From positions 960,001-1,024,000 of the forward strand of contig CBDCXM010000009.1 in assembly GCA_965223855.1 (NCBI GenBank): a stretch of DNA of 64,000 nucleotides, written 5' to 3'. Below the pieces are notes generated by a model that saw only the letters and a program-made list of their open reading frames with translations, made no database searches and was not told the DNA's origin. The DNA comes from Candidatus Multivoradales bacterium. Its GTDB lineage: Bacteria; Acidobacteriota; Thermoanaerobaculia; Multivoradales; JAHEKO01. Position numbers and translations under genes: made by a program. Below, piece after piece: positions 17,225-45,600 of this stretch. Position 1 is the stretch's first letter, and every line of letters starts with the position of its first letter.

Positions 17225-17606
17225 TGCTGCTCCCGCTTCTGGACGTGGTCCGATGAGTGGGCGGCGGGTCGGGTCGAGGAGAAGTAGATGGCTTTGTGCA
17301 AGGTGCTCCTTGGAGGCAGGGAGAAGGGATCCGTCGGTCATTCCCTGTCAGGAGCAAGGACTGGGCCACTTCGTGCCGACGGTGCATTCGGCAGGGAAGT
17401 CGCTTGGAGAGAGAGGTTTGGGTGACTCCTGGCGTGCCGACCGGAGCGGTAGTCGGGGTCCGCATTCTGAAGTCTCCGTCCAGATCCCGGACGCCGTCGT
17501 GTGCCGTCGATCGGGAGCGGCCGGTTCGGCTCTACAATCCCCTGCCATGAGAGCGGCTAGGAGAGTGCCCGGAGAGAGTCTGTTGGGAGAGCCCCCCGGA
17601 GAAACA

Positions 17607-30700: not shown

Positions 30701-33700
30701 ACCACCCGCCGGCCGACTTCGATCCTCCGTTCGTCAAGGAGCGTCTCGCCTCGCGCACCGACCGCGACGGCGACGTGACCACCTTCGAGTACGACACCGC
30801 CGGCAACCTCACCAGGAGCGCCACCGTCGTCGGCACGGCGACGATCGAGACCCGCCACGGTTACCTAGCCAACGGCGATCGCGCCAGCACCACCGATCCG
30901 CGGGGGGCGATCACCCAGTTCGGCTACGACGCCTACGGCAACCTCGCCTCGGTGCTCGACCCGCTCGGTCACGAGACGACCACCGAATGGGACGAGCGCA
31001 GCCGTGCGGTGCGCGTGGTCGATGCGCTCGAGCGCGAGACGCTCCTCGCCTACGACACCCTCGACCGGGTGACGACCCGCAGCCGGCCGCTCGGGGCGAT
31101 CGAGACGACGGCCTACGACGACGTCGCCAGTACCGTCACCACCACGGATGCCGAGGGGCGGGTCACCGTCGAGCGCCGCGATCTCGAAGGCCGGACGGTC
31201 GAGACCACCAACCCCGAGGGCGGCACGAAGCTGGTCGACTACGACCCGGCCGGCAACAAGGTGCTCGAGACGCTGTGGTTCGACGCCGCGACGCCGCGCC
31301 ACGACGTCACCTTCGAGTACGACGACGCCGGGCGCCTGCTGCGTCGCCACGAGCCGCTCGGACGTACTACCGAGTTCGGCCACGACGCAGTCGGCAACGT
31401 CACCTCGGAAGTTCTCTCCGACGCCACCGACGCCGGCTTCGCTGTCCGGCGGATGGAGACCGAATACGACGCCCTCGACCGGGCGATCCGGAAGCGCGAG
31501 TTCCTCGACGCCCGTCCGCTCGAAAGCCGCATGCTGCTCGACGGCGAGGGCAACCTGCTGCGCGAGACCGATCCGCTCGGCCGTGTCACCGACCACGCCT
31601 ACGATGAGCTCGACCGCCGCGTCGAGACGCTCGAGCCGCAGTGGCGGCCCGCCGAGCGCAAGCGCACCACCTTCGAGTACGACGCCAACGGCAACCTGGT
31701 GCGCGAGGTGCGCGCCAACGACCCGGCCGATCAGGAGCGCACCTTCACCTGGGACCCCCTCAACCGCGCTCTCACCACCACTGATGCGACCGGCGGCACC
31801 ACCAGCTTCGAATACGACGCGGTCGGCAATCGCATCCGCGAGACCGACCCCAACGGCAACGTCACCGCCCACGCCTACGACGAGCTCGACCGACTCGTCG
31901 CCACCCTCCAGCACCTCACCCGGGTCAGCGTGCCGCCGCGGGTCGTCACGACCACCTACGGCTACGACCGGGTCGGCAACCGGGTGAGCGAGGAGTGGCC
32001 GAACGGCAACGTCGTCACCCACACCTACGACGGCCTCGATCGACTCCTCGCCTCGGCGGACTCGCTGGGCCCGCTCACCGCCGCTACCTACGACGCGCGC
32101 GGCAACCCGCTTGCCGAGAGCGACGCCAACGGCAACCTCACGACGAGCACCTGGGACGCGCTCGACCGGCTGGTCGAACAGGAGCTGCCGGAGGCGCGCA
32201 CGCTGGCCTTCACCTGGGACGTCGCCGGCAACCGTCTCAGCGCCACCGACGCCCGTGGTGCCACCACCGGCTTCAGCTACGACACCCTCGACCGCCAGAT
32301 CGAGATCACCCATCCGGAGACCGAGGGGGTCGTTTACATCGAGAGCTTCACCTGGGACGATGCCGGCAATCGCCTCACCGCCACCGACCGCCGGGGGCTG
32401 ACGACGACGTTCGCCTACGACGACCTCGACCGTCTCGTCTCGGTCACCGATCCCGACCCGCTCGGCTTCGTCACCAGCTACGGCTACGACGCCGAGGGCA
32501 ACCGCACCTCCGAGACCGACCGCCGCGGCATCCTCTCGCGCACCGACTACGACGCCGAGAATCGGCCCGTGCGGATCGAGCGCGACGGCCTGACGCTGCG
32601 AACGATCGCCTACGACGCCGCCGGCAACCGGATCCTCGAAGTCGACGCCGAGGGGCGGCCGATCGAGTCGGCGTGGGACGAGCGCGACCTCCTCGTGGAG
32701 ACTCGCTACCCGCTCGAGGACGAGGCGATGGCCTACGTGCTCGACGACCTCGGCGACCGGCTCGAGACGCGGGTCGGTGAGGGCGTGCCCGACACCACCG
32801 TCTCGACCGCGACCTGGGACCTGCGCCGGCGGATGGAGAGCGAGACCAACGCCGTCGCCGAGACGACCGGCTACGAATACGACGGCAACGGCAACCGCAC
32901 CGCCATGGTGCGCCCGAAGTCGACCCGCTGGGAGTACGACTTCGACGGCGCCGACCGGCTGGTGGCGGTGCGCGACCCGCTCGGCAACGAGACGACCTAC
33001 GGCTACGACGGCAACGGCAACCTCACCTCGCAGACCGACGCCGAGAACCGCACCACCACCTTCGCGTGGGATGCGCTCAACCGGCGCCTGCGGCGCACCT
33101 ATCCCGACAGCGCCTTCCGCACGGCGACCTGGGACGGCAACGGCAACCAGCTCTCGGCGACCGACGCTCTGGGCCGCACGACCACCTTCGGCTACGACGA
33201 GCTCAACCGGCTGACCACCACCGCCTACCCGTTGCCGAACCCGCCGACCGGCGACGACCTGGTGTCGATCACCACCACCTATGACGCCAACGGCAATCCG
33301 ACCGAGGTGGTCGAGAGCTACACCGGCGCCACCGGCACCCGCACCACCTCCCGCGCCTTCGACACCTTCGACCGGCTGACCGCGGTCACCGACGGCCACG
33401 GCGAGACGCTCGGCTACCAGTACACCGCGAGCGGCAACCGCGCCCGCCTCACCGATCCGGACGCGAAGGTCACCCGCTACGAGTACGACTCGAAGAACCG
33501 CACCACCCGGGTCGAGATCACCGGCTCGGGCACTACCGAGTACGCATGGCTGCCGACCGACGACCTCGCCGAGATCCGCTATCCGGAGGGCACCGTCGCC
33601 GCCTACGGCTACGACACCCCCGGCCGCGTGACCTCGATCGAGCACACCCGAGCCGCGGCGCTCGTCTCGCGCTTCGACTACGTCTACGACCCCAACGGCA

Positions 33701-35628
33701 ACCGCCTGACCCAGCGCGAGCAGCGTTTCGACGGCACCGACGAGCTGACCGGCTACACCTACGACGACGCCGATCGCCTCACCGAAGTCGCCTACCCCGA
33801 CCAGACCGTCACCCACACCTACGACGGCGTCTCCAACCGCCTCACCGAGACCACCGTCGATCCCGGCGGCACCACCACCGGCGACCTCAGCTACGCCTAC
33901 AACGACCGCCACCAGCTCACCGCCGTCACCGACCACCTCGATCCGACCGGCGACGTCGCCTGGACCTGGGACCCCAACGGCAACCAGACCTCGAAGACCG
34001 AGGGCGGCACTGCCACCACCACCTACACCTACGACCTCCGCGACCGCCTCATCGAGATCGCCAACGCCTCAGGCCTCCTCGGCCGCTACCGCTTCGACCA
34101 CCAGGGCCTGAGGATCTCGAAAGAAAGCGCCGCCGGAACCGAACACTTCGTCTGGGACGACCAGGCCCTCCTCCTCACCACCGACGCCACCGGCACCACC
34201 CGCGCCAAGCACAACTACGGCCCCAGAAACCTCCTCTCCGTCGAGAACGCCGGCGCCACCCGCTACTACCTCACCGACGTCCTCGGCTCCCCCTTCCAGA
34301 TCTCCAACGCCGACGGCTCCGTCGACACCTACCGCCAGTACGACGCCTGGGGCGAAGTGAGAAGCGAGGTCGTAGGAGACGCCGACCAGCGGTTTGGCTT
34401 CACGGGGTACCAGGCGGATGGGGAGAGCGGGTTGCTGTATGCGAAGGCGAGATTCTACGACGGGGCGGTGGGGCGGTTCGGGAGGGAGGATCCCTTTGAG
34501 GGTGAAGGGTTGGTGCCGCCTAGTCTTCATCGGTATTTGTATGGGTACGCGAATCCGGCCTTCTTCGTGGATCCCGACGGAAGGCAGGTCAAGTGGCAGA
34601 AGGAAGACGACATCCCCGAAGGGGTTCCCTATTTTGTAGTCGATCAGGAGATGGAGACCGGCGGATCCTTCGAGGTCTTCTTTAGTGCGGACCCTGGGGC
34701 GTGGAGCGAGGCAGATCCGATCTTGGACGGGTCCTTCTCAGCGGTTCGCGACAGGGCCAAAGAAAGACGCCACAAGGGGGTCGCTGTTGGACGAGAGACC
34801 TCGAAGAACCTGCTTGCTCAGTTGCCTGGGGTCGGACGTTTCTTCACCGAGAAAGTGGCTGAGGCCGCCGAGAGGGGGCGAAGCGCTCGGCAAAGTGCGA
34901 CTCGGCTCAACGCGACATTGGACCAGGGCCTTACTCGAAATCGCGGTGGGGACACAGAAAGCTATCTGGCAGCTTGGCAGAGATCAACGCTGGCGGACGT
35001 CAACCAAGGTACACAGGTTCTCAAGGAGTCGCGAGATGAAGCTGGCATAGTGGTGCGCGAGAGCGCCCGATCTCTGGGTGCGGCCATCGAGGCTGCAGAG
35101 CGCCTGAGCGTTCTCTCCCTTAGTCCTCGGGTCGCAGGCAGACTCTTCGCTGCCAGCCGGCTACGCGGCGTCAGGGGTCTTGGAAACACAGCAACGAGCC
35201 CGTGGCTAGAGGACTCGCGGGATGCCGTCGTGGCTCATCTCGAAGAGTTCAGAGAAGGTGCTTCCTACCTCGTGCCGGAGTCGACCTACGTCAATTGGAT
35301 CAAGGGAAAGAAGTCGATTGGAAGAGTAGACGGTCAGTTCGTGACCACAAGGGTAGCAATGGATCGATTGCTCTCCGATGCGAGGGGCAGAATAGGCGAA
35401 GTTAAACGCAAGCTCGGAATACCCGCCGACGCCTGGAACGAGCCCCTCTATCGAATCGATGTGGATAGCCCCCTGCTATTCAATGCTCGCTTACCCATGG
35501 GGGTCGAGTCAGGTGCCAACGACATGTTCCGATGGGGCGGGTACACTAGCGGCGGTCTCCCAGAAGCGGTGATCGACCAAGTTCCGAGCTGGGCAGTTTC
35601 TGTATCGGCGGTAGGAGTGCGACCATGA
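24796..35628 (+). CDS. Giant Rhs/YD-repeat polymorphic toxin: transglutaminase-like N-domain, Ig-like region, YD repeats, Rhs core, C-terminal toxin
   Basis: Many YD..GN repeats, RTYSS..PLGVGWTHNY, RFGFTG...LYAKARFYD...GRF..EDP, NPAFFVDPDG cleavage motif, lower-GC tip. Exact start uncertain. Confidence 0.93.
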   Translation: MTGAAIVPCNLYQYSFSGRREILRVRRALTPGLLLSLCWLSSAAGARAQSEMRPSASEPPRARAIPALPALSAESAAAESHEQWLATLAARDTPDSRARSLVALARLEVETEAHFEAVSERLSSAPAPAVAAARLEEAAARFRESVRTIRVVMEHEAPGGRTLRDLLAASVEGRRGRAARPVRGSLPHRSLSLAPRPLPSLSPIVPSYADPLAAAATSDDLIDSPEAPRSPAILAQAASLGFDYARIYDFVRNDIRTEWYQGSQKGAEGALASGAANDVDKASLLITLFRSSQLPARYVRGVLRLDVEPLAAAFGLADDQQVPIALARAGVPHEVVIAGSRIAAVDVLHTWVAAYAPYANYRGVVIDTSGKTWVPLAPAVQGVDRSPPTRVLEAMGFDSAGFVTDYLATEQPDRPLEQIRREVEAFLGDDSYAEQLGARSVAVRRLELLPSGLPTPLATPFYEGASLPAEEETRLRIVASVGATGSEPSLESSLPLASVTGRRLTLSYTPASADDDAIVNLFGGLDLVPPYLVELLPQVKVDGRLVALGTIGVPMAVHHLVRLEVEAAGTMVSHEFLTPAVAYSAIALHAPGDRAQADAGDDPADTEFLAARLLSRVAYRYSESWSAAEDELAGLLDVAVARPLPAVALAHNRIGIEQVFDVPLRIHWEGVDLDAALRIAEPLPNGAPDDTRSWFRLSALEGSSLERRVLETEFQVEAVSADRGLGLARDIGTTVERLDPGNVDAVLDALDLPANVETRIRQQVLGGFEVELPDAPVGAEAWSGTVWRAVDSVSGSAGYFLAGGLAGGATTTAPPNWVLEFLAQALAAPYSLPPNTDPLGAAELRKLPEGDDQYGTVGDLFVHRLEVQVRDLIGRPVEGAEVTFLSERGGGLLVDEDDVELPLAIVTTDRRGVAGVRLRAGTDVSDNPTYLHLDPDDPFPAQALAHEVGAFVDGLLGIVSLDLPFRAIAFPTEAVGLERVDTDQTHFTGRVGFLSDIIPIRAVDEFGNAVSNVPLRFEVAESSGPDPDCTNPSPHVLNAVLVLPGDFSSCHNGLPAIGYCGEPELERMTSSFPASAGVVLGSSASSLYTVLVSAIDAPELGSLAFTYAGLYEISSTNGTCSPGTPILEAFDRHLLYSPVRIDGMGNNIQAAPVGANYPEPLVVHFAAWDPDDPEDDGDPPLEAGSWTPATGNVYLSTAPGTAASTTPTVEIAPGVFSTVLTTDVVAAYNPVHFEATEITSVESLECPPCSLDCPGVPGHDCLEDCIEIPTNDACINCPLCTLDCPGPDCDADCPVDGPIPASECVEESGRGAAQTIDWGFFGIPRLIDPDVNGVWGVDPQLTGFAPDPIPLDGSGSVEIESRIGYSTEPLDYVAATADVELFADGDWVSSGGGSSLSGSGEARIQRGFPIDLDATNEARLVLNRGSPAEVRSPLVELPLTQGIFEPGDDNDDNDLVGRRQLYVSQDVDLTSRRVCSQPDLFYFTLTQEASVTLTFEKLSGVDTDGTPQYDPPEEFLLNEILPEGEHSYSVTAGAGAGDLTLGPGDYRFTLVAEGTATGLVESFEGTARSELRASDSLPLGHVLVEGVDLFDGHLTLQREDLEIPGRGSHLAFRRTYSSSADRDPGPLGVGWTHNYASFVTITPCGEVIVVGGEGSGMRFVDDGAGGLTALAGYHGGLVASSDDNSFDFFSLNGTRFHYEPDPRSPGRWPLRSIEDTNGNLTQLFYDPNTAEPLVAAVVDPAGRRLEFGYENRVFEIVGEVELRSKRVLTSIDGPAGLEMRFEYDDFGHLVRAAREGDARVEFYGYDWVIDPLLAPQRALVSTTNALTGATTVYQGAGGLTGIDADIKLARLRTTSVTRPEGGVTRFVYDDAGLLDRTSLELSQQVIDPRGFATTYRLNQYGAPLAITDPLGHTTAMTWDLDDVVMTSRTDANGHTTSYTHDEHGNVLTEEIEVTDADDAVHLYRRTNTYHPPADFDPPFVKERLASRTDRDGDVTTFEYDTAGNLTRSATVVGTATIETRHGYLANGDRASTTDPRGAITQFGYDAYGNLASVLDPLGHETTTEWDERSRAVRVVDALERETLLAYDTLDRVTTRSRPLGAIETTAYDDVASTVTTTDAEGRVTVERRDLEGRTVETTNPEGGTKLVDYDPAGNKVLETLWFDAATPRHDVTFEYDDAGRLLRRHEPLGRTTEFGHDAVGNVTSEVLSDATDAGFAVRRMETEYDALDRAIRKREFLDARPLESRMLLDGEGNLLRETDPLGRVTDHAYDELDRRVETLEPQWRPAERKRTTFEYDANGNLVREVRANDPADQERTFTWDPLNRALTTTDATGGTTSFEYDAVGNRIRETDPNGNVTAHAYDELDRLVATLQHLTRVSVPPRVVTTTYGYDRVGNRVSEEWPNGNVVTHTYDGLDRLLASADSLGPLTAATYDARGNPLAESDANGNLTTSTWDALDRLVEQELPEARTLAFTWDVAGNRLSATDARGATTGFSYDTLDRQIEITHPETEGVVYIESFTWDDAGNRLTATDRRGLTTTFAYDDLDRLVSVTDPDPLGFVTSYGYDAEGNRTSETDRRGILSRTDYDAENRPVRIERDGLTLRTIAYDAAGNRILEVDAEGRPIESAWDERDLLVETRYPLEDEAMAYVLDDLGDRLETRVGEGVPDTTVSTATWDLRRRMESETNAVAETTGYEYDGNGNRTAMVRPKSTRWEYDFDGADRLVAVRDPLGNETTYGYDGNGNLTSQTDAENRTTTFAWDALNRRLRRTYPDSAFRTATWDGNGNQLSATDALGRTTTFGYDELNRLTTTAYPLPNPPTGDDLVSITTTYDANGNPTEVVESYTGATGTRTTSRAFDTFDRLTAVTDGHGETLGYQYTASGNRARLTDPDAKVTRYEYDSKNRTTRVEITGSGTTEYAWLPTDDLAEIRYPEGTVAAYGYDTPGRVTSIEHTRAAALVSRFDYVYDPNGNRLTQREQRFDGTDELTGYTYDDADRLTEVAYPDQTVTHTYDGVSNRLTETTVDPGGTTTGDLSYAYNDRHQLTAVTDHLDPTGDVAWTWDPNGNQTSKTEGGTATTTYTYDLRDRLIEIANASGLLGRYRFDHQGLRISKESAAGTEHFVWDDQALLLTTDATGTTRAKHNYGPRNLLSVENAGATRYYLTDVLGSPFQISNADGSVDTYRQYDAWGEVRSEVVGDADQRFGFTGYQADGESGLLYAKARFYDGAVGRFGREDPFEGEGLVPPSLHRYLYGYANPAFFVDPDGRQVKWQKEDDIPEGVPYFVVDQEMETGGSFEVFFSADPGAWSEADPILDGSFSAVRDRAKERRHKGVAVGRETSKNLLAQLPGVGRFFTEKVAEAAERGRSARQSATRLNATLDQGLTRNRGGDTESYLAAWQRSTLADVNQGTQVLKESRDEAGIVVRESARSLGAAIEAAERLSVLSLSPRVAGRLFAASRLRGVRGLGNTATSPWLEDSRDAVVAHLEEFREGASYLVPESTYVNWIKGKKSIGRVDGQFVTTRVAMDRLLSDARGRIGEVKRKLGIPADAWNEPLYRIDVDSPLLFNARLPMGVESGANDMFRWGGYTSGGLPEAVIDQVPSWAVSVSAVGVRP
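34253..34580 (+). repeat. Rhs core end, copy 1 of a ~330-bp direct repeat (copy 2 at 37143-37470)
   Basis: Direct alignment at offset 2890: 2 mismatches in the first 115 nt, then mostly synonymous divergence. Confidence 0.95.
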
Positions 35629-35888
35629 TTGAAGAAGTTGCGCGTGATGACGACCGGCTTTTTCGGTTGGTGAAACTCGAGGACGGGAATCTCCTGCTGA
35701 CAGTCGTGTGTGGAGGGATCGGGATGTACGAGACGCATCTCGTGCTGAGCTCGGAGGAAAGGCTGAATTGGGACGCGAACGGTGTGGCATTCCTCTCCCA
35801 GCTGGCTCGATGTATGTGCCAGAGCCAGAACATGTTCGGCAACAGACTGCTCAGACACCTACCTGAGGACGAGGCCTCGGCTGAATAG
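35625..35888 (+). CDS. Putative cognate immunity protein of the main Rhs toxin
   Basis: 87 aa; ATGA overlap with the toxin stop; AGGAG RBS; position. Confidence 0.75.
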   Translation: MIEEVARDDDRLFRLVKLEDGNLLLTVVCGGIGMYETHLVLSSEERLNWDANGVAFLSQLARCMCQSQNMFGNRLLRHLPEDEASAE

Positions 35889-35889
35889 T

Positions 35890-35931
35890 GCAGCGAGATA
35901 GAGGCAGCGAGATAGAGGCCGAGATAGAGGC
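35890..35931 (+). repeat. Short tandem repeat (GCAGCGAGATAGAG x2 plus GCCGAGATAGAG) abutting the left inverted repeat
   Basis: CGAGATAGAGGC is read three times in succession. Confidence 0.9.
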
Positions 35932-35932
35932 C

Positions 35933-37129
35933 TCACAGGAATACTGAAGGACGCACGCTGCCGTAGCGGCTCGCGCCTCGTCCTCGCCGACCGCACCCGT
36001 TCTCCGACTCGGCAGCCTCTCGGAGCGCTTCGCAAGGGGCGTTGTCGAGCTTGTCGCCGCGACTCAGCGACCTCTCGGCAGTACTCCCGAGACACCCCTC
36101 CACGCCGCGACCGGCCGGCGCGCTTGGCGCCAACCGATCTGGCCTAGAGCGCGAACTCCTTCTAGGTCCTCAGCGGGAAGAAGCGCCCAGCCGGCAGAAA
36201 GCAGCCCGGCGGAAACTGCGCCGGCTTGCCTGCCTGCAGAGCTTCCGCAGCCCGGCGGTACTCGATCACGAACCACTGGTACGCTTCTTCCAGCGTCCTG
36301 CGAACGTTCCGGTCGATCGCATGGAACCTTGGAGCAGGTGTGCGCTGCGGGTCGCTCGAGGGGCGGTCGTGGGGGTCCTGCTTGAGGATGGCCTTCCTGC
36401 CCAGCACTTTGTGACCGTCCGTCTCCGCCTCGACCTCTCGCACGATCGAGCGAACGCGTGCCTGGCGCTGGGCCTCTGTCAGGTCACCCCAGGTCGGCAG
36501 CGGTGTGATCTCGAGTCGCTCTTCCTCGGTGAACTCGCGCTCGGGAGCTCGGTGCCCGCTCTCCCGAGCCCGGTACTGCGCAGTGCGGTCGATCCAGATA
36601 CCTTTGAGCTCTCGGCCTTCGGTCAATACCCGCAGGCTCGTGGCGCCGGGCCAGTGCCGGGGAGAAGCGACGAGCCGGTCCTTGCACCCCTGCGCGAGCA
36701 GGTAGCGCAGACGCTTCTCCGGCTGGGCCTCTTCCTCGCTCAGTTCGATGGCGGTGTAGCGGCGTTCGAAGATCCCTCCTCGCCAGTCGTGGATCCGGCC
36801 GAGTTCTTTGGCGATCTTGGACAGCGCGTAGCGCATGAAGTCGGCAAGCTGCTTTGAATCGTCGGGCCACAGGAGCAGGTGAGCGTGGTTCGAGAGGAAG
36901 ATGCAGTAGCAGACCTTCATGCCGTACTTGCGCTGGGCACGGGCCATCGCTCCGAGGATGACGGCATTCACCTTGGGCGAAGGGCGCAGCAGGAAGCGGC
37001 GCTGCACGGCGCGGGTCGTGACCTCGACGAGCCCAGGGCCGGCGAGGTGGCGAAGTCGGTAGCCCATCTCGTCTCTTCAGACGGAGGGTCCATCTGCATC
37101 CTTGCACTGGTCCTGCAGTATTCCTGTGA
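35933..37129 (-). mobile_element. HUH/RAYT-type transposase element bounded by 20-bp inverted repeats
   Basis: TCACAGGAATACTGAAGGAC (35933-35952) versus the reverse complement of 37110-37129, TCACAGGAATACTGCAGGAC (19/20). Confidence 0.75.
36162..37067 (-). CDS. REP-associated tyrosine transposase-like (Y1 HUH) protein
   Basis: VEVTTR, CIFLSNHAHLL (HUH), G.IFERRY, LRYLL...LV.SP..WPG.TS (catalytic Tyr region). Confidence 0.85.
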   Translation of the reverse strand: MGYRLRHLAGPGLVEVTTRAVQRRFLLRPSPKVNAVILGAMARAQRKYGMKVCYCIFLSNHAHLLLWPDDSKQLADFMRYALSKIAKELGRIHDWRGGIFERRYTAIELSEEEAQPEKRLRYLLAQGCKDRLVASPRHWPGATSLRVLTEGRELKGIWIDRTAQYRARESGHRAPEREFTEEERLEITPLPTWGDLTEAQRQARVRSIVREVEAETDGHKVLGRKAILKQDPHDRPSSDPQRTPAPRFHAIDRNVRRTLEEAYQWFVIEYRRAAEALQAGKPAQFPPGCFLPAGRFFPLRT

Positions 37130-38235
37130 CACCTACTTGACTGCGCCACCCGCTACTACCTCACCGATGTCCTCGGCTCCCCCTTCCAGATCTCCAACGC
37201 CGACGGCTCCGTCGACAGCTACCGCCAGTACGACGCCTGGGGCGAAGTGAGAAGCGAAGTCGTCGGCGACGCCGAGCAGCGGTTCGGGTTCACGGGATAC
37301 CAGGCGGATGGGGAGAGTGGGTTGCTGTATGCGAAGGCTCGGTTCTATGACGGGGCGGTGGGGCGGTTTGGTAGGGAGGATCCGTTCGAGGGTGGGGGGG
37401 TGGTGCCGCCGAGCTTGCACCGATACCTGTACGGGTACGCCAACCCTATTCGCAACGTCGATCCGAGTGGAGAAGCAACGGTCAGTGTTCTTGGCTTCGA
37501 GTTCGAGGTTCCTGATGAGCTGGTCGACTTGGTCATTGCTGGCATCAACATCGCTACCGGAGCAGCGCAGGAGATCGACGACGATGTCGATCAGATCCGA
37601 GAAGTGTCTGAAGACCCAATAGCGCCTTTGCTCGATCTCGCAGGCAGAGCTCGTGAAGTGTCCGATCGCAGTCTTGAGGGTGCGCTAGATGCGACTGCTG
37701 CTCTGGTTGTAGAAGGGGCAGACGGTTTCCTTGAAGCTCGCCAAGGTCTCATTGAGAGTTCAAGTAGTCTCCTACGTTCGGAGCTGACGAGAACGGCAAG
37801 GTCGGTGCCCGTAGCCAATGCGCTTTCCCGCCTGGGGGATGCGCATGTGCTCGCGGTCGAAGGAAGCACCGGCGAAGCTCAGAGAGAGTTCGGCGCAGCT
37901 TTGGTCCAGGTGGGGCAGGACGCTATCGCGTTGTTCGGTCTTCGTGGTGCGATCCGAGGAGGGCAGACAAGCCGTGCGAGCGGACTAGGCCAGGCTAGCA
38001 GGTCTGACTCGCTGCTTGTGAACGGGCCAGGCGTCAACGTTACGGCGCGGGCGGATGCGCTGGCGTACAGGCAGATCATCGCCGGTGGTCGGCGAGGAGC
38101 GGGCACTCCCCTCACCGACCTTCGGGCTGTTGAGCGAGTGATCGGGAGAATTCCGGACGGCCCTCGCGTGACCATTACCACAGCACAAGCGGCGGCTCTT
38201 GAGGAGGCCTTGGGACTCCCAACAGGTCGGCTAGC

Positions 38236-39281
38236 TGTGGAGTCTCAAGACGTTGTTCAGTAGATGAGGTTGTCCATCCGAGCCTCTTCGTAGAGGCTTC
38301 CTGGTGTCAGACCAAGGAATCTTCAGAGGAGGAATCGGATGGACATGCATGAGAATGCCCGAAGCTGCCCTGCAAGTCGAGCGCTTCTCGTCAATCGAGT
38401 GCTGACTCAAGGTTGGTCTGTCGGCCAGGCCGCGGAGGCCATCGGAGTCTCGACACGGACCGGCTACAAGTGGCTGGCTCGCTACCGAGCCGAAGGCCGC
38501 AGTGGCCTGGCCGACCGCTCGAGTCGACCGCACCGCATCGCTCGATCCACCAGTGCTTTCCGGGTACGCCAGATCGTGAAGCTGCGTCGTCGGCGCATGT
38601 GCGGAGCCGAGATCGCCGCGCGACTCGGGATGCCTCGCTCGACCGTGGCACGGATCCTCAAGCGGGAAGGCCTGAATCGTCTCAAAGCCCTGGAGCCTCC
38701 AGAGCCGGTGGTGCGCTACGAGAAGGACCACCCTGGCGAGCTCGTGCACCTCGACATCAAGAAGCTCGGGAGGATCCGTGGGATCGGGCATCGGATCACC
38801 GGGAATCGACGCCACACGACGGCTGGAATCGGCTGGGAGTTTGTCCATGTCGCCATCGACGACGCGTCACGCCTTGCCTACGTGGAAGTCCTTCGCGACG
38901 AGCGCAAGGAGTCTGCAGTGGCCTTCCTCGAGAGAGCCGTAGCCTTCTACGAAAGCCACGGCATCCACGTCGAGCGCCTCATGACCGACAACGGGTCGTG
39001 CTACCGCTCCAAGCTCTTCGCCGACGAGCGTCGGCGGCTTGGTCTCAAGCACACCTTCACCCGGCCGTACCGGCCGAGGACCAATGGCAAGGCGGAGCGC
39101 TTCATCCAGACCTTGCTCAGAGAGTGGGCCTATCGCTTCCCCTACCGCTCTTCACGAGAGCGGACGAGACGACTCCAACGCTACCTGCACTTTTACAATC
39201 ACCATCGAATGCATCAGGCACTCCATGGACTACCGCCCATCAGCCGGCTACCCCGACTGAACAACGTCATGGGAATCCACA
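38236..39281 (+). mobile_element. IS481-family insertion sequence (1046 bp)
   Basis: TGT...ACA ends; 25-bp IRs matching 22/25 (TGTGGAGTCTCAAGACGTTGTTCAG / TGTGGATTCCCATGACGTTGTTCAG); 6-bp target duplication GCTAGC at 38230-38235 and 39282-39287. Confidence 0.96.
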
Positions 39282-39286
39282 GCTAG
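38339..39286 (+). CDS. IS481-family DDE transposase
   Basis: H.NAR, LADRSSRPH, PGELVHLDIKKL, TDNG, TNGKAERF; the TAG stop lies in the target duplication. Confidence 0.96.
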   Translation: MDMHENARSCPASRALLVNRVLTQGWSVGQAAEAIGVSTRTGYKWLARYRAEGRSGLADRSSRPHRIARSTSAFRVRQIVKLRRRRMCGAEIAARLGMPRSTVARILKREGLNRLKALEPPEPVVRYEKDHPGELVHLDIKKLGRIRGIGHRITGNRRHTTAGIGWEFVHVAIDDASRLAYVEVLRDERKESAVAFLERAVAFYESHGIHVERLMTDNGSCYRSKLFADERRRLGLKHTFTRPYRPRTNGKAERFIQTLLREWAYRFPYRSSRERTRRLQRYLHFYNHHRMHQALHGLPPISRLPRLNNVMGIHS

Positions 39287-39457
39287 CAGGCGGGGCGGTA
39301 CTCTCTGTCGTGGATGATGTTCAGATGCGAGCACCGCGCTCGCCCTTGGCGGGCAACGACCTGTTCCTGGGGCGAGGGAGAGGCCTGCCAGGAGGGGGAC
39401 CAGAGATCAACGTTGCCCCGATTAGCACCGCAGGCGGAGGTGGGGTACGACAGGTGA

Positions 39458-39961
39458 TTGTGGACGTTGAGTGAAGAGATGATCTTGACCGGAGAGGTTG
39501 AACCGGTAGAGAGACGAGGTTGGAGTCGTCAGTGTCCGGGTTGTCACGAGACAGTCCGGTTCACCGTACTCAATCTCAATACAGGGGTTGAGCCGTTCTT
39601 GTACTGCGATGGCGGATCCGATCTGCTCCTGCGGGAGGAGGATAGGTTGGCGCTGGCTCAGCTCGGTTCCCCCTCAGAGGCGCCCTCGCTTGAGGTCGTG
39701 CGAGCCTTCTATGAGGATCTCGAAGACAGGCTTCCCTCGTGCCCGCTCGGTGGTCGGTTTGGTGTTTGGGCCAACGCAAGGTGTCGCCATTGCGGGCGAG
39801 GCTTGCTTGGGTCTATTGCGAGAAGAGACGAGCACCTCAGGTTCTTTGAGACGAAGCTAGTTTGGCTGGAGGGAACGACAGTTTTCAGGGGGGCAAGCCT
39901 CCCTAGTAGTCGGTTGGACAAGGTCCGCGTCAGCCTCCGAGGAGAAATGCCGGGTGAGTAG
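39458..39961 (+). CDS. Putative immunity protein for the orphan toxin, Cys-motif containing
   Basis: Overlaps the restored toxin stop; CPGC and CRHC plus two further Cys. Start may be 39467 or 39479. Confidence 0.65.
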   Translation: MWTLSEEMILTGEVEPVERRGWSRQCPGCHETVRFTVLNLNTGVEPFLYCDGGSDLLLREEDRLALAQLGSPSEAPSLEVVRAFYEDLEDRLPSCPLGGRFGVWANARCRHCGRGLLGSIARRDEHLRFFETKLVWLEGTTVFRGASLPSSRLDKVRVSLRGEMPGE

Positions 39962-39966
39962 CGCCC
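39939..39966 (+). repeat. ~28-bp cassette-end repeat (copy M2)
   Basis: GAGGAGAAATGCCGGGTGAGTAGCGCCC; 22/28 to the copy at 40536. Confidence 0.8.
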
Positions 39967-40072
39967 CGGAGGAGGAGGAGAGGTGCCAACAGATCTCTGT
40001 CGACGTGGTTGGGGGCGGCATCACCCAGGTGCGCAAGTTCCGCCTATGTGAGTGGATCAAGAAATAGTGATC

Positions 40073-40558
40073 ATGGGTAACTCGGAGTTGGTCATTCCAG
40101 CATTCAGGGAGTTTCTGGAGGAAGCAGAGAGGGCTTTCAAACTTCTCGCCCAACGATTCGATTTCGAGTCAGAGCGGTCAGTTCATGGTCGAGAAGCATC
40201 CTTCCTGCTCACCAAGAAGCAGCGCCTGAATCTCCGTGTTTTCTTCGAGCCGTTCACGAGTCCGTGGCTGGAAGTGGTCGGAGTCCGTCGACAAGGTCTC
40301 GTTGTTCGGACTACCTTTGAAAGGCTCCTAGGTGAGTCGCAGCGTGCGAGTACGCCACTTAGATTGACCGATCCTGACAACCCGGATCGAGCTGGCTTCA
40401 AAGTTCTCCTGACGGCTTGGGCACAAGTGTTCGCCGATAGCTTTGAAGGGCTTCTCAATGCGGAAGAGGGCGTTGGAGACATGCTAGCGGCCCTCCGCGA
40501 CCGTGGGGGGCAGTTGCCCCTTTCCCTTCCGGAGGGAGGAGAGGTGCCGGGTGAATAG
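40073..40558 (+). CDS. Hypothetical protein, probable orphan immunity gene
   Basis: Lower-GC ORF in the post-toxin array; ends VPGE* inside the repeat; alternative GTG start at 40052. Confidence 0.6.
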   Translation: MGNSELVIPAFREFLEEAERAFKLLAQRFDFESERSVHGREASFLLTKKQRLNLRVFFEPFTSPWLEVVGVRRQGLVVRTTFERLLGESQRASTPLRLTDPDNPDRAGFKVLLTAWAQVFADSFEGLLNAEEGVGDMLAALRDRGGQLPLSLPEGGEVPGE

Positions 40559-40563
40559 TGCAG
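40536..40563 (+). repeat. ~28-bp cassette-end repeat (copy M3)
   Basis: GAGGAGAGGTGCCGGGTGAATAGTGCAG; contains an RBS, a GTG start and a TAG stop. Confidence 0.8.
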
Positions 40564-40871
40564 TAGAAGTTGATATCGACGCTGCGCTAGCTGAAGCACT
40601 CGTCTTCTGGACGGGATGGAAGCGTACTCATAGCCCCTCCAGAGATAAGACCGAGTTTGTCAGCAAGTTTGGGCCGCGAGTTGCCGACGAACTACTACCT
40701 CGTGTGCGGCGCTTGGAAGAGGTGTTCTACAGCTCGGACGCCAGATACAAGGCCGCGAGCTTGACGGAGCTGGCTGAGCGATCGGCAGCGGATTCTCGCG
40801 AGAAGCTACCCGAGACCCCAAGGGAAGTCACAATGGCTTTGGCCTGGTGCTACGCCTTCGATTTCAAGTAG
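40551..40871 (+). CDS. Hypothetical protein, probable orphan immunity gene
   Basis: GTG start inside the repeat with AGGAG upstream; small helical protein ending ALAWCYAFDFK. Confidence 0.6.
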   Translation: MNSAVEVDIDAALAEALVFWTGWKRTHSPSRDKTEFVSKFGPRVADELLPRVRRLEEVFYSSDARYKAASLTELAERSAADSREKLPETPREVTMALAWCYAFDFK

Positions 40872-40896
40872 GGCTTCCGCGACTCGTGCCCCCACC

Positions 40897-40924
40897 GAGA
40901 AGGGGTGCCGGCCGACTAGTGCAA
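40897..40924 (+). repeat. ~28-bp cassette-end repeat (copy M4, intergenic)
   Basis: GAGAAGGGGTGCCGGCCGACTAGTGCAA; 22/28 to M3. Confidence 0.75.
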
Positions 40925-40976
40925 GATTCGCTGCCTCGGTAGCACGCTCCGCCCATTGGCATGCTGAAATAGCGCC

Positions 40977-41726
40977 ATGTCACATTCCGGTGTAATCCTC
41001 GCCAGGCTCGACTTGCGTCCCGTCTTCGCTGTGCTCGCGGTTGTGCTCGTGTCGGCCGTGATCTGGTCCCTGCTCGACAACGACTCCGCGGAGGACTCGA
41101 TCGAGGAGCCAACCGGCGGCCCCGCTGCCGTCGGTGACCCTGAGGCAGAGAAGGAGCGGCTTCGCGCCAGGATCTTCGCACTCGAAGGAGAGCTTCAGGC
41201 GGTGGCGGATCGGTTGACGGCTGCGCGCATCCCTCCCTCCGAGGATGTCTTCGAGACGATCCGGGAGATCGACCGCATCGCTCGGAGTCGAAACGAGGAG
41301 AGGGACTTTCGACGCTTCGGTGGGCTCGAGGACCTCGACCGGGAGCTGTCTCGCCTGCAGGAACACGAGGGGATGCTCGAGGCTGCGCTGATGCGACTCC
41401 GCAAGCGACTGCCGAGGCCCAGGGCCGAGACCGAGGCCGAGCCGACGGCTCTGGTGCGAAGCCGCTCAGTGGTGGCGGGACGACTGAGGCTCTCGATTCG
41501 GGTCTCGAATCCGGCGCCCGTCGTCATCTACCCGACGCTGGAGATCTTCGCTCACAGATGCTCCGAGTCGCTGGAGGCGCTGGGTCCGGAGATCTCTCTG
41601 GGTACGACGACACTGCTGGTCGAGAGCGGGTCGGGCCGGTCACAGGACCTCGAGTTCGATGACCCTGCGCCGGCAGAGGACGAGGTGCCCTGTCGGTTCC
41701 GAATCGAGATCCTGAGTCAGGACTGA
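40977..41726 (+). CDS. Membrane-anchored coiled-coil protein with a beta-rich C-domain
   Basis: N-terminal TM helix, heptad-rich middle, beta-rich C-terminus. Confidence 0.6.
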   Translation: MSHSGVILARLDLRPVFAVLAVVLVSAVIWSLLDNDSAEDSIEEPTGGPAAVGDPEAEKERLRARIFALEGELQAVADRLTAARIPPSEDVFETIREIDRIARSRNEERDFRRFGGLEDLDRELSRLQEHEGMLEAALMRLRKRLPRPRAETEAEPTALVRSRSVVAGRLRLSIRVSNPAPVVIYPTLEIFAHRCSESLEALGPEISLGTTTLLVESGSGRSQDLEFDDPAPAEDEVPCRFRIEILSQD

Positions 41727-41769
41727 GGGGTGAGTAGAGCATTGTCGAAGAGGTACCGTAGGCCTCGTC

Positions 41770-41967
41770 ATGCCAGTCGATCGCGAAGACTCGCGGAACT
41801 GGACGTTCCATGCCGAAGAGGTCTCCGTGGGCGCCTACCTGGTTACGGCCAACAATCTCGATGGGCACCAAGTCGAGGTGACGGGGACCGACCTGGACGA
41901 AGTGGTCTCCAGGTGCAAGGAGGCTGCGCGAGATATGGATGAGGCATCTCGCGAGCATCGGTCGTGA
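41770..41967 (+). CDS. Small acidic hypothetical protein (65 aa)
   Basis: WTFHAEEVSVGAYLV..GHQVEVTGTD reads like a compact beta-alpha fold; GTGA overlap with the next gene. Confidence 0.5.
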   Translation: MPVDREDSRNWTFHAEEVSVGAYLVTANNLDGHQVEVTGTDLDEVVSRCKEAARDMDEASREHRS

Positions 41968-42392
41968 GCAAGGATCCTCGTCCGGCGCTGTTGTTCCTCC
42001 TTGCAGTCGTCGCGGTCGGGCTCGGTTGGATAGCCCTGAGGTCGAGCGACGACCTCCAGGAGGCCGATGCCGAGACCGAGGCTCTGGAGCTTCGCAAGCA
42101 AGCCACCCGCGACGAAATCGCGGAGCTGGAGCGCGAGTTGCAGCTCCTGGCCGATGACCTCGATCTGGGGGACGGCATCAAGCCCGGCGAGATCGATCTG
42201 AGGATTCTGGAAGTCGCTCGGGCGGCGACCCGTCGGGCGAGCAGTTGGGATCCGGCCAAGCACTCGGGCGACGGTGTGATCGACGTCGAGCTGCTCGCCC
42301 TGCTCGAGCAGAGGAGGATGCTGGAAGAGGCCAGGGAGCGGTTGGGGCGAAAGGCAGAGGTCCCCGAAGGGAAGCCTGGGATGCCCGAGTAG
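41964..42392 (+). CDS. Membrane-anchored coiled-coil protein, likely paralog of the 40977 N-half
   Basis: D.RP..LAVV TM start resembles 40977; coiled coil; ends MPE*. Confidence 0.55.
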   Translation: MSKDPRPALLFLLAVVAVGLGWIALRSSDDLQEADAETEALELRKQATRDEIAELERELQLLADDLDLGDGIKPGEIDLRILEVARAATRRASSWDPAKHSGDGVIDVELLALLEQRRMLEEARERLGRKAEVPEGKPGMPE

Positions 42393-42698
42393 CACGGCCT
42401 GGAGCTTCTCCGCGGCTTCGCAGCGCTACGAATTGCCAGTTTGCGGCGGAACGCGCTCTCGACGTACCTTCCGGCGAGGCCGATTCGGCAGGGCCTGCGC
42501 TTTACGAGGGCAGGCGGCTGCAAGATCGGCGAGTCGAGTTCCGTCTGAAGTTGCGAGACGGCGTTACCATCGCCGCAAGCAACTCAGTCCGACTTCCGAT
42601 CCGCCCCGGTGCACCCGGCAGAGCCGAGTGCGCAACGAGCCCGCTGAAATATGCTGGAATAGCGCTATGTCACAGTTCGCTGTCGAGGTTCCCCGCTC

Positions 42699-45600
42699 TT
42701 GAACGGGCGTGATCGAGCACCGGCCGGCCCTGCCGTTCGTTGTCTGCTGGCGGTTGCGGTCGCGGTGCAGCTCGGGGGCGCGCCACTCGTCTACCCCGAG
42801 TCGGCCGCCCCGGAATCGGCCGACTCAGGGAAGGCCGCCTCGGAGATCAAGCCCTTCTCGGCAGCGGAACGACGCGCGGTCGAGCTGGCGGCGCTCTACC
42901 TGGAGGGCGGCGCGGAAGCACTGGCGGGAGAGTTCGCCGAAGGCAGCTCCTGGAGCGCGCTTTCGGAGGCCGGTCGCCGGCTCGAGATCGAGACGCGGCT
43001 CGGCCCCGTGGCGGCTGCACATTGGACTCTGCTGACGCCTTCGGGAGCGATCGGCGAGCACCTCGCCGGCTTCGAGGTGGCCTTTCCTTCCGGCGCCGAA
43101 GACGTCGTCGAGTTCGCCCTGCTCGAAGAACGGGGCGTCTGGAAGCTCGACCGGATCGTCTCGAGTGTCGAAGCGCGGCCGGAGCCGATCTCTTTCGAGG
43201 AGCTGTTTGCCGGCGCTGCGGCGGAGGACTCCGACGCGATGTGGCCGGCGCCGTCAGCCGATCGCGGCCCGCCCTGGTGGCTGGCCCTGCTGATCCTCGC
43301 ATGCGCTCTGTGGACTGCCGGGAACGGAAGGAGAGCCCTGCGCCCGGCGGTTGGGCTCCTCTCGGGGGCGCTGCTCGCCCTGATTGCCCCAGCCTGCAAG
43401 GAGGCGCCGGAGGAAGTCGACGCCGCTCCCGAGCTCGAGCTACTCGCCGCCGCGCGCGACGCTCGATGGACGACCGCGGGAGCCGCCGTGGCAACCATCG
43501 CCAAGCCACCACCGGCGAGTGCTGCCGAGCGCGCCGACCGGATTTGGCAGGCGGAGCGGGCGCTGGCGCGCAGCGACTTCGAGACGGTGGAGCAGTTGCT
43601 GTCTCTCTTCCCGGAGCCGAGCGTGGTGCCGAAGGTCGAGGAGCTGCGCGGCGAGCTCGCCCTCCTGGAGCGCGATGCCGACTCCGCCATCGCAGCCTTC
43701 GAGCGGCGGCGTGATCTCGGGCTCGCCTACGACAGCGTCACCTACGACCTGGCCATCGCCAAGGCGGGCCTGGGCCAGCCGGAGGCGGCCACCGCGACGA
43801 TTCAGCTCATGGCAGAGGTCGGGTCGCGGTTCGCCTGGCCGCACTACGCGGTCGCCAAGCTGGCGCTGGCCGATGAGGACGAGGAGGGGGCGCTGGCAGC
43901 CTTCGAGCGCGCCTGGCAGCTCGGGCCGATGAGCTGGCAAGAGACCTTCCAGGACCCGACCCTCACGGCCATCGTCGGGCGGCCCGAGCTCTTCGACACC
44001 CTGCGCCTCGACCGCAGCAGCGAGCCCGTCGTCCTCGCTCCGGAGGCGGGCGCGAGCGCCGTGCCGCTCCCCGAGTCGGGTGACTACCGGACGTACGGCA
44101 GCTACCTCGTGGCGCGGCTCGGCGGGGCGGCCCTTCATGTGCCGAACGGCGCGGAACTGGGGCCGGACGACGCGCTGCCCCAGCCTGCGGGATCGCTGGA
44201 GACTCAGGTTCAGGAGGAGGCGCTCGAACGGGTGACGGCCGGGCTCGAGGAGGGCCGCCCGTTCTCGGAGATGGAGCACCTGGTCGAGCTCGCCGCCAGC
44301 GGCCTCTACCGCGACGGGAAGTGGGACGAGGTCGTCGACCTGACCGGTCGGCTCGACGTCGGCCTCGAGCGTGGCTCGCCGATCCTGGTGTGGCTGCGGG
44401 CGTTCTCGATGGCGAAGATCGGTGACGACGAAGCGGCGCGGGCGATGCTGCTCGAGGTCGCACAGCGCGATGTCGGCACCGGTCACCTGAGCCCGATCCA
44501 CCTGTCACAGCTCGCGGAGCTCCTTGCCGAGCGCGACGCCTACGACCAGGCGGTCCGAGTGCTGGCGAAGGCGAATGCGATGTACCCGTCGCCGACACTC
44601 GAGACGCGGATCCGGCAGCTGCGCCTCGAAGGCCGATTGCAGAGTTCCTACCGGACGCTCCGCACGAAGCACTTCGAGCTGCGCTATCCGGAGGGCACCG
44701 ATCCGAGCCATTCGGAGGCGCTGGGGAAGGTGCTCGAGGCCGAGCGGGTGCGGATCCGTCGATGGGTGCCGGCCGAGGCGGCGGGTCGGGTCGGGGTCGA
44801 TCTCTTCCCTCTCGGCTCGTTCCTCTCGACCTTCGGCGAAGGGGGCGTGATCGGTCTCTTCGACGGCCGGGTGCGGGTGCCGCTGGCAGACCTCTACAGC
44901 CTGCACCCGAGCCTCGTCGCCATCCTGTCGCACGAGCTGGCACACGCGCTGATCGACCGGCGCTCTGCCGGCAGGGCGCCGAAGTGGTTCCACGAGGGGG
45001 TGGCGATGCACGTCCAGATGGTCGATCAACCGACCAATCCGCTGCCGGAGCTCGCGGGCAAGAACCGGATCTTCTCGCTCAAGGCGCTCGAGGCGGTGCT
45101 CGCCGGGATGAGCGACCCGAGCTTCAATCAGGCCGCCTACACCCAGGCGGCGTGGCTGGCGCACTTCATCGAGGCGCGCTTCGGCCGGCGCACGCTCGAC
45201 GAGCTGATGCTCGCCTTCTCACGCGGGCTCGACACCGAGGGCGCCATCGGTGCGGTCACCGGACTGGAGGTGGCGCAGTTCGAGCAGCAGTTCCGAGACT
45301 GGGGGGTGACTCGTGCCCCGCTGACCTGGGACACCGAGGTGCGGCGCTACGACCGCGAGCAGGAACGGGAGCGTAGGCTCGAGGCGTTCGAGCGCGACAA
45401 GCTCATCCAACCCTCGACCCGCTCACGCCGCCAACCTGAGCGGGAGCGACGCCGGGTCACCGTAGACGAGGATTTGCGGCGGCGGATGCACGCCTGGCAC
45501 GCCGGGTACGCGGAGACGGTGCGCGACGTCAAGCTGCGGCTCAAGCCGGTCCTCGAGATGCTCGACGGACGGCGCAACTCCGGGAACCTCGGTACGTCGT

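Follow-up and report, generated by a model that had tools for sequence, protein, structure and literature searches.

An Rhs polymorphic-toxin locus in the genome of a Candidatus Multivoradales bacterium has been invaded by two mobile elements, one encoding an HUH/Y1 tyrosine transposase and the other belonging to the IS481 family. The locus is in other respects ordinary, consisting of a main Rhs gene, its putative immunity gene and one displaced orphan module. It lies within a stretch of 64,000 nucleotides (the window), which corresponds to positions 960001-1024000 of contig C9 of the source genome, G000; coordinates given without a contig name are those of the window. The HUH element is probably a passenger with a bias for the 3' regions of Rhs genes, remodelling the array through insertion and homologous recombination. 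HUH elements would insert into or behind Rhs genes, and their dispersed copies would then act as stretches of homology, recombination across which would delete, invert or join the flanking Rhs pieces. The outcome would be orphan modules whose truncated core begins at the end of an element. In a separate event, the IS481-family element has cut the orphan tip. Nothing in the analysis shows that the HUH enzyme shuffles toxin tips itself.

The main Rhs gene (24796-35628, forward strand) is an open reading frame (ORF) for a protein of 3610 amino acids, with an N-terminal transglutaminase-like domain (Transglut_core), DUF6531 and 14 RHS_repeat stretches. Its Rhs_assc_core (TIGR03696) occupies 34339-34581 (C9:994339-994581), the core ending at approximately 34581, and the C-terminal tip of some 350 amino acids (34546-35628) matched no Pfam family. 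Overlapping the Rhs stop codon is a small forward ORF (35625-35888, 87 amino acids), which matched no Pfam or NCBIfam family and is the putative immunity gene of the main tip by virtue of its position; its own stop codon falls within an end-like repeat at 35871-35893. The HUH gene (36162-37067, reverse strand) is intact and encodes 301 amino acids. The 3' (right) end of its element, at 35871-35952, is made up of the degenerate end-like copy at 35871-35893, three short GAGATAGAGGC repeats and a terminal inverted repeat at 35928-35952. The 5' (left) end, at 37110-37142, comprises the opposing terminal inverted repeat (37110-37134) and 8 nt common to the other closely related copies, defined below as group A. 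This left end directly abuts the orphan Rhs module (37142/37143), which opens with a 5'-truncated core end on the forward strand (37143-37471; TIGR03696 at 37229-37471, Rhs_assc_core E value 3e-16). The orphan retains 37143-37442 as a 300-nt direct repeat of 34253-34552 in the main gene, at 90% identity and with the first 113 nt nearly identical; the homology fades after approximately 37470, just past the core end.

Beyond this point lies a different tip (37472-39474, forward), split by the IS481-family element into 37472-38235 and 39288-39474. Both pieces match a single uninterrupted gene on contig C13 of a related genome, G029, at 48% and 68% identity, and in that genome the tip is followed by a homologue of ORF 39458-39961 (33% identity, E value 1.8e-21). 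Because G029 keeps the order of tip and then immunity gene, 39458-39961 (forward, 167 amino acids, with cysteine pairs) is the predicted cognate immunity gene of the orphan tip; its last codons and stop lie in an end-like repeat. The RHS repeats, a core ending in a DPxG motif, a variable tip, a putative downstream immunity gene and an orphan that retains a core fragment together identify the locus, as far as sequence can, as an Rhs polymorphic toxin with an orphan module. The first-pass annotation of this DNA had described much of the layout, and the full Rhs toxin gene, the small ORF behind it (an immunity gene by position), the HUH gene within inverted repeats and the duplicated core end with a different tip are all present. 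Several details differ. The terminal inverted repeats are 25 nt long and 88% complementary, where repeats of 20 bp had been given. The duplicate does not begin after a gap of 13 nt, as it starts 9 nt after the repeat arm and 0 nt after the extended group-A end. Finally, the interval 37247-38263 is not the whole orphan tip and no immunity gene stands directly behind it.

The protein encoded by the HUH gene is predicted to be an intact Y1 HUH enzyme, since its HUH and tyrosine residues are invariant across the family, all family members examined match Y1_Tnp and the family profile matches solved structures. Both its HUH motif (SNHAH) and its catalytic tyrosine, Tyr122 (RYLLAQG), are preserved. 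An alignment of 23 family members shows N60, H61, H63 and Y122 to be invariant and Q126 nearly so, with the long C-terminal region also conserved. Taken singly, the window protein matches Pfam Y1_Tnp (PF01797) with an E value of 0.008 and 16.8 bits, the cut-off being 23, and NCBIfam REP_Tyr_transpos (NF047646) with 38.5 bits, below the cut-off of 80; for Y1_Tnp, all 23 family members have E values of 0.01 or less, down to 4e-8. A search of the PDB with the family profile returned 2xm3, 2xma and 2xo6 at an E value of 2.5e-5, over a region spanning the HUH motif (HLLL aligned) and the tyrosine helix. The molecule name of 2xm3 is TRANSPOSASE, and the three entries are presumably ISDra2 TnpA. A database search found 409 homologues at E ≤ 0.001; the 120 listed are approximately 250-340 amino acids long, many bear a precomputed PF01797 match, and where names are given these are RayT or transposase, including 'REP element-mobilizing transposase RayT' from JGI. 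The tyrosine motif, R-Y-L-L-x-Q-G, has the Y-x3-Q form of class 1 and not the Y-x3-NP form of class 2, the RAYTs, as these signatures are set out in the available text of Quentin et al. 2018 (PMC6006769). The element fits the TIRtron/TIRYT kind, a placement made by published description and not by TIRYT sequences. In the accessible part of that description (Di Nocera et al. 2013, PMC3733652), TIRYTs are RAYT-like Y1 genes flanked by terminal inverted repeats, forming a sharply defined acidobacterial group, mostly with 1-3 genes per genome; the available text of Quentin et al. 2018 (PMC6006769) discusses them also.

The HUH element appears to be a many-copy, transposon-like mobile element, as judged from the structure of its copies. 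In the source genome 19 HUH copies are full-length and one, on contig C4, is split; four fragments are also present. Two small contigs, C4 (10 kb) and C7 (12.8 kb), probably reflect redundant assembly of parts of C9 or a variant strain, which makes 19 a safer count than 20 for the HUH copies and takes one from the count of Rhs cores as well: C4 resembles C9:88-98 kb and C7 resembles C9:72-85 kb in gene order and repeat flanks, with one HUH copy and one Rhs core among their contents. Four copies are 80-91% identical to the window copy in amino-acid sequence, and these five group-A copies align end to end over approximately 1.2 kb, from AGGTGTCACAGGAATACTGCAAGG some 45 nt before the ATG to its inverted copy some 220 nt after the stop, with unrelated flanks. 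The other subfamilies are 52-58% identical, groups B, C and D each having an end motif of its own. Element ends also bear short tandem repeats, GAGATAGAGGC in the window and CCTAGAGGTGCC or GAGAGGAGGTGCC in other subfamilies. Each end motif is present in 11-28 copies in the genome, those of types A and B mostly beside HUH genes; 15 of the 17 copies of the group-A motif lie within 500 bp of an HUH gene or fragment, the other two at 1,050 bp and approximately 19.7 kb. Among the end types, only the repeat GGTGCCAGGTGAAT resembles a dispersed REP-like family in its behaviour. Many of its 28 genome copies occur in tandem clusters far from any HUH gene, with eight in 400 bp at C9:1978285-1978688 and further clusters at C9:3069152-3069411, 3123912-3124219 and 2635223-2635316. 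Transposases are otherwise scarce in this genome, with two rve matches and no match to DDE_Tnp_1. The HUH family was found in 34 of 41 related genomes, a tally that takes in the unpublished genome G005, with up to 23 matches per genome, and many of the homologues lie on contigs of 1.0-1.5 kb.

The genomic context of the copies is varied. Unrelated genes adjoin 14 of the 20, among them genes for TPR/flavin oxidoreductase, CHAT, ribonucleotide reductase (RNR), PKD/Ig, biotin-lipoyl, DUF4365, PPK2, WD40, T2SSE/LexA, Nqr/ABC, VWA and SH3 proteins. Of 13 mapped copies, 10 have a convergent gene beyond the 3' end of the element, the two 3' ends facing each other. Flanks have a mean GC content of 0.650, compared with 0.679 for the genome, and 57.5% of them fall below the genome's 25th percentile. 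It seems from these features that the family prefers sites just behind genes in variable DNA. Replication-strand bias was considered as a source of the convergent orientation and was rejected, as orientations relative to the replication strand, determined by GC skew on C9, are 8 versus 6. The first-pass annotation had suggested that the enzyme may be a dedicated diversifier or cassette integrase; given the many genomic sites of the family (19 full-length copies and one split) and its mostly unrelated neighbours, both of which the annotation had named as grounds for rejecting that idea, the enzyme is not a dedicated Rhs diversifier. One variable region (C9:1043000-1080000, 19-56 kb past the end of the window) contains five group-A copies, three of them full and two truncated, together with more than ten solo ends. 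An Rhs-like protein of 548 amino acids is encoded there as well; it starts with a signal-peptide-like sequence of its own, has a few RHS repeats and ends in a TNT tip (NAD-glycohydrolase family).

Within this varied context Rhs genes are strongly over-represented. Six of the nine Rhs_assc_core matches in the source genome lie within 1.6 kb of an HUH gene. In the window, the main core (C9:994339) and the orphan core (C9:997229) are 1.6 and 0.16 kb, respectively, from the window HUH copy (C9:996165). Elsewhere, the core at C9:1068855 lies 0.6 kb from the HUH gene at C9:1069704, that at C9:1991508 lies 1.4 kb from C9:1993163, that at C8:738855 lies 0.4 kb from C8:737563 and that at C3:150824 lies 1.5 kb from C3:152579. 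A tandem HUH copy (C9:1071006) stands beside C9:1069704, bringing the number of Rhs-adjacent copies in this genome to six. The cores without a nearby HUH gene are C9:2750054 and C9:81596 together with the C7 duplicate of the latter. Five near-complete relatives were also surveyed; these were chosen for contiguity after matches in two of them, G014 and G032, were known, and do not constitute an unbiased sample. In G014, 2 of 3 HUH copies lie within 4 kb of an Rhs core; the corresponding figures are 3 of 10 in G032, 0 of 8 in G040, 0 of 5 in G034 (one lies at 7.6 kb) and 0 of 2 in G017. Thus in the last three relatives 0 of 15 copies are near any of 57 Rhs cores. For the six genomes together, 10 copies were observed within 4 kb where 0.83 were expected, an enrichment of approximately 10-fold or more.

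A similarity-ranked sample of 78 HUH loci from 39 assemblies was searched for Rhs cores within 10 kb. Nine loci from three assemblies have one, six of these nine coming from one assembly, and all 12 of the Rhs core matches are on the strand opposite the HUH gene; one adjacency in G032 is co-directional. Adjacency has been found in at least five assemblies: G000, G014, G032, CBDFNS01 and JBDTQT01. In eight of nine measured cases the HUH gene lies 1.2-3.2 kb from the end of the core; in the ninth, where the element cuts the tip short, it lies 0.4 kb away. The association of HUH elements with Rhs genes is therefore real, strong in some genomes and not found in others. Enrichment of homologues beside Rhs genes, which had been proposed as a check on the first-pass annotation, is far above chance in G000, G014 and G032 and is absent from the three remaining relatives. 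One locus in assembly CBDFNS01 (L055, 9890-19612) has an arrangement like that of a composite transposon, with an Rhs gene (13270-18873, reverse strand) between two inverted HUH copies.

The repeats that punctuate the array belong to a different subfamily from the neighbouring HUH gene. End-like repeats with 74-85% identity lie on the stop codons of small ORFs at 35871-35893, 39939-39964, 40536-40563 and 41719-41740; since the repeats contain TGA and TAG, the small ORFs stop inside them. The repeat at 40536-40563 (forward, core GGTGCCGGGTGAATAGTGCA) is a solo group-B left end situated on the stop codon of ORF 40052-40558, and 20 nt of it (40543-40562) are identical to group-B left ends. Of the 15 genome copies of the exact group-B core, GGGTGAATAG, 13 lie no more than 500 bp from an HUH gene. 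The solo repeat at 39939-39964 (forward) and those at 41719-41740 and 35871-35893 are, by repeat comparison, degenerate versions of the group-B end. A further group-B remnant at 40880-40945 (forward) consists of a left end and approximately 25 nt of leader, lacks a following HUH gene, and was recognised by alignment with the 5' regions of the group-B copies at C9:93795, 526617 and 3053968. None of the array repeats matches the group-A ends of the neighbouring HUH gene, and the solo repeats are not palindromic and have no significant fold (z scores of -0.5 to -0.65). The repeats of about 28 bp that had been reported between the small genes do exist at the ORF stops; their sequences identify them as solo or decayed ends of the sister subfamily, group B, and not as sites matched to the group-A enzyme. 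A degenerate end pattern, GGYBYC-N4-GAAT, was set aside as too loose for mapping solo ends across the genome, with 153 matches where approximately 104 were expected.

Several observations weigh against an account based on insertion and homologous recombination. Within 4 kb of an Rhs core lie 5 of the 19 non-redundant copies in the source genome, against 0.27 expected from random placement, and in the five relatives 5 copies were observed against 0.56 expected on the same basis. A general preference for variable DNA may not explain an enrichment of this size. Furthermore, the 5'-truncated orphan Rhs in the window starts exactly at the 5' end of the element (37142/37143), and at a locus in another assembly (L049), with a different HUH subfamily, a truncated Rhs gene again reaches the element 5' end exactly. 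Such exact junctions are not predicted by simple insertion, and since the other element end faces unrelated DNA in both cases, a second event after insertion is needed. On contig C8 a solo end lies approximately 28 nt before a truncated Rhs fragment, whose reading frame stops in the 3' end of another HUH copy. The four end-like repeats at successive ORF boundaries all point in the same direction, which looks orderly. Finally, the contigs of four sequencing runs show neither an empty HUH site nor an excision product of the element, although contigs cannot exclude either.

Rearrangements in keeping with the passenger reading are seen at HUH copies in the L049 assembly. Over 770 bp the L049 orphan matches, at 97% identity, the core end of a full Rhs gene at another locus, L054, after which its tip differs. 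L049 and L054 also share an inverted 2.2-kb segment (96% identity) beside a truncated HUH piece. No common target motif is evident at the two exact junctions (n = 2). The Rhs-TNT gene beside C9:1069704 was dropped as a further junction case, as the element does not cut it and it begins with a signal-peptide-like sequence of its own. The read data comprised four runs of one study, available as assembled contigs only, with a depth of 2-8. One contig spans 34338-37257 without difference, confirming the order of tip, immunity gene, HUH gene and orphan. No joint of 34253 to 37143, as would mark a tip exchange, was found among the contigs of the four runs, which again cannot exclude it. Two other joints were discarded as too short to trust, one linking 40563 to 40961 (sides of 24-27 nt) and one linking 37251 to 42606 (a side of 21 nt, with 32 other letters between).

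An active mover of cassettes, a sharpened version of the idea in the first-pass annotation, is unlikely. The Y1 enzyme would cut and rejoin single-stranded DNA at the terminal and subterminal repeats so as to capture, insert or delete cassettes of Rhs tip and immunity gene, with either a distant second site replacing the element's own far end or the element 5' end being joined into Rhs core DNA. Framed as a TIRYT recombinase of the Thermoanaerobaculia, for which the same low probability holds, the repeats would be cassette boundaries, orphans of core end, tip and immunity gene would arise where an element end is joined into Rhs core DNA and could later be recombined onto the main gene, and the whole would be an HUH counterpart of integrons or of recombinase-linked immunity arrays. 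In keeping with active movement are the enrichment near Rhs cores (10 copies versus 0.83 expected in six genomes, and still 5 versus 0.56 when G000 is left out), the proximity of six of nine G000 cores to an HUH gene and the exact junctions of element ends with truncated Rhs genes in two genomes and different subfamilies. Element-type ends at 37110-37142 and 39939-39964 also bracket the orphan module, the small ORFs terminate in end repeats pointing one way, and in L055 an Rhs gene is framed by inverted HUH copies. The lack of replication-strand bias on C9 means in addition that lagging-strand targeting fails to explain the convergent arrangement. The wider distribution of the family tells a different story: 14 of 20 copies have unrelated contexts, the 15 copies in three relatives are not near any of 57 cores, and adjacency occurs in only 3 of the 39 assemblies in the similarity-ranked sample. 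Copies share the 1.2-kb element alone and never flanking cargo, and a search for further copies of the small ORFs found none. The array has group-B repeats where the neighbouring enzyme has group-A ends, and the solo repeats lack a significant fold. Moreover, in G029 the homologues of the orphan toxin and immunity gene sit in an orphan array with no HUH gene in the 14 kb fetched.

At the other extreme, the 3' regions of Rhs genes might simply be tolerant, horizontally acquired DNA to which HUH elements have no special relation, the junctions being accidents of deletion. Such pure co-location, which is distinctly unlikely, would account for the general occurrence of HUH elements in low-GC flanks, for the many copies that lie elsewhere and for the three relatives without adjacency; the IS481-family element, which carries one of only two rve transposases in the genome, has also landed in the orphan tip. 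It is harder to reconcile with an adjacency that recurs in at least five assemblies, with core-to-HUH distances confined to 1.2-3.2 kb in eight of nine cases and with the same exact-junction architecture in two genomes. Informally, low-GC islands far outnumber Rhs loci, so 5 of 19 copies exceeds what a preference for islands would give. A domesticated, single-function RAYT, that is, a host housekeeping gene maintaining dispersed repeats, with the 28-bp repeats as ordinary REPs, is highly improbable. The name given to homologues by JGI, the inverted repeat copies flanking the gene and the 28 copies of GGTGCCAGGTGAAT, many clustered away from HUH genes, are what such a gene might show. Yet there are approximately 20 gene copies, including recent ones 80-91% identical as well as truncated ones, and the group-A motif is limited to 17 copies, and 15 of these lie no further than 500 bp from an HUH gene or fragment. 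The score of 38.5 bits against REP_Tyr_transpos falls well short of 80, the repeats are not palindromic, and the tyrosine motif is Y-x3-Q in place of the Y-x3-NP of RAYTs given in the available text of PMC6006769. An insertion bias for Rhs 3' regions, with homologous recombination between dispersed copies, remains the probable explanation of the locus.

A number of parallels can be drawn with known systems. TIRtrons, as far as the published text at hand describes them, resemble the window element in having a RAYT-like Y1 gene longer than IS200 TnpA, terminal inverted repeats in place of hairpin REPs, and repeats that sometimes occur in dimers or clusters; the group-A end (GGTGTCAC) is one position off the GGGGWSAS motif printed there. 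The window family differs from that description in its approximately 20 gene copies, with recent copies and fragments, in its Y-x3-Q motif and in its short subterminal repeats, and enrichment near Rhs genes goes unmentioned in the portion of the description available. With the IS200/IS605 elements (IS608 and ISDra2, single-strand 'peel and paste' Y1 systems) the family shares the HUH motif and a catalytic tyrosine in Y-x3-Q, the profile match to 2xm3, 2xma and 2xo6, and many copies with fragments. By contrast, the window protein is twice as long, with a conserved C-terminal domain, terminal inverted repeats and short subterminal repeats replace the subterminal hairpins, and orientation (8 versus 6) shows nothing of the IS200/IS605 bias for the lagging-strand template. 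No tnpB turned up beside the HUH copies, no search aimed at tnpB having been made. Like the RAYT/REPtron systems (E. coli TnpA-REP with REP/BIME), the family has a Y1 gene between inverted short repeats and cognate repeats specific to each subfamily. It is set apart by a multi-copy gene, by repeats that are few, non-palindromic and mostly next to genes, by an NCBIfam score under the cut-off and by the absence of the Y-x3-NP signature.

The Rhs side of the locus has precedents of its own. The Rhs loci of E. coli are known for their H-rpt/ISAs1 elements. The orphan resembles known orphan Rhs modules in that a full Rhs gene is followed by a short core piece (300 nt, 90%), a different tip and its own immunity gene, and departs from them in that an HUH element exactly fills the gap between the modules and an IS481-family element disrupts the tip. 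Orphan modules, and the exchange of tips by homologous recombination, were described by Koskiniemi et al. (2014, PMC3967940), as cited in the accessible text of 10.64898/2026.07.13.738213. The same text describes recombinase-linked poly-immunity arrays and insertion sequences beside immunity clusters of Rhs and type VI secretion system (T6SS) toxins, the enzymes being Xer-type tyrosine recombinases or DDE elements. In such arrays, as in the window, mobile-element or recombinase genes and repeats adjoin arrays of toxin tips and immunity genes; the enzyme in the window is instead of the HUH/Y1 type, and movement of cassettes by it is only hypothetical. No link of RAYT or TIRYT enzymes with Rhs loci was found in the open-access literature, supplements lying outside the search; the one paper in which both terms are frequent deals with them apart. 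The TIRtron kind, Rhs orphan modules and mobile elements or recombinases beside immunity arrays are thus already in print, and the enrichment near Rhs cores and the exact junctions constitute a new, testable observation.

New Rhs tips and immunity genes are usually credited to homologous recombination without dedicated machinery. If insertion bias and recombination alone are at work, the locus illustrates how toxin arsenals can be shaped by mobile elements. Direct participation of the enzyme would make it a new class of cassette recombinase, and this would be the first role assigned to the poorly understood TIRYT proteins. In either case, the data do not bear out a dedicated diversifier equipped with repeats of its own.

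The second mobile element, absent from the first-pass annotation, is an IS481-family insertion sequence of 1.05 kb (38230-39287, forward), with 32-nt inverted repeats at 91% and GCTAGC at both extremes. Its transposase (38339-39286) matches LZ_Tnp_IS481 (1e-25), rve and rve_3. That one of only two rve transposases in the genome sits in this orphan tip shows that mobile DNA of another kind occupies the site too, which fits the passenger reading. One contig, from run X4, joins 38229 to 39282, with six shared letters and a shorter side of 30 nt, and this fits a strain without the IS481-family element.

Further features are seen at the ends of the HUH element. A conserved small hairpin, CGTCT-GAAG-AGACG, stands directly 5' of the HUH start codon (37064-37085 in the window, and in the same place in other group-A copies). 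By analogy with IS200, the translation of which is controlled by a hairpin before the start codon, it may control translation of the HUH gene. An inverted repeat of 12-14 nt (35866-35880 / 35972-35985) encloses the 3' end of the element; its first arm (35866-35880) falls within the final codons of the putative immunity ORF, its second (35972-35985) within the element. A region of 131 nt around the 3' end folds better than shuffled sequences (z scores of -3.1 and -3.4), and the left end folds weakly (-1.4 to -1.9).

Downstream of the orphan module the array continues with two small forward ORFs, 40052-40558 and 40503-40871 (spanning 40052-40871), which matched no family. In 200 other genomes of the class, ORF 40052-40558 has no homologue and ORF 39458-39961 has a single one, in G029, situated in an array with no HUH gene within the 14 kb fetched. 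Since the repeats are of group B beside a group-A enzyme, and since homologues of the cassettes are nearly absent (none and one in 200 genomes), the sequences do not suggest an integron-like or recombinase-linked cassette array. Next comes a 1.7-kb segment (40961-42674, forward) bracketed by the 24-bp direct repeat that had been reported earlier and was found again (40961-40984 / 42651-42674), its copies agreeing at 22 of 24 positions. A 27-nt pattern, allowed up to five mismatches, finds only this pair in the genome. The segment looks like an inserted or duplicated one placed ahead of gene 42699-45830, for which the only match in genomes of the same genus is a 2.4-kb contig of G001; the N-terminus of the main Rhs protein has no match in G001-G004, all of that genus, and these genomes thus offered no orthologous locus for a comparison of synteny. 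The segment contains ORFs 40977-41726, 41770-41967 and 41964-42392 and the end-like repeat at 41719-41740. None of these ORFs matched a Pfam family, and only a weak FtsL-like match was obtained, for 41964-42392. The products of 40977-41726 and 41964-42392 each open with a membrane helix followed by a coiled coil, and the first copy of the 24-bp repeat contains the start codon of 40977-41726. The GC skew of C9 clearly locates the replication origin near 0.76 Mb and the terminus near 2.98 Mb, placing the window approximately 0.2 Mb from the origin with the main Rhs gene on the leading strand.

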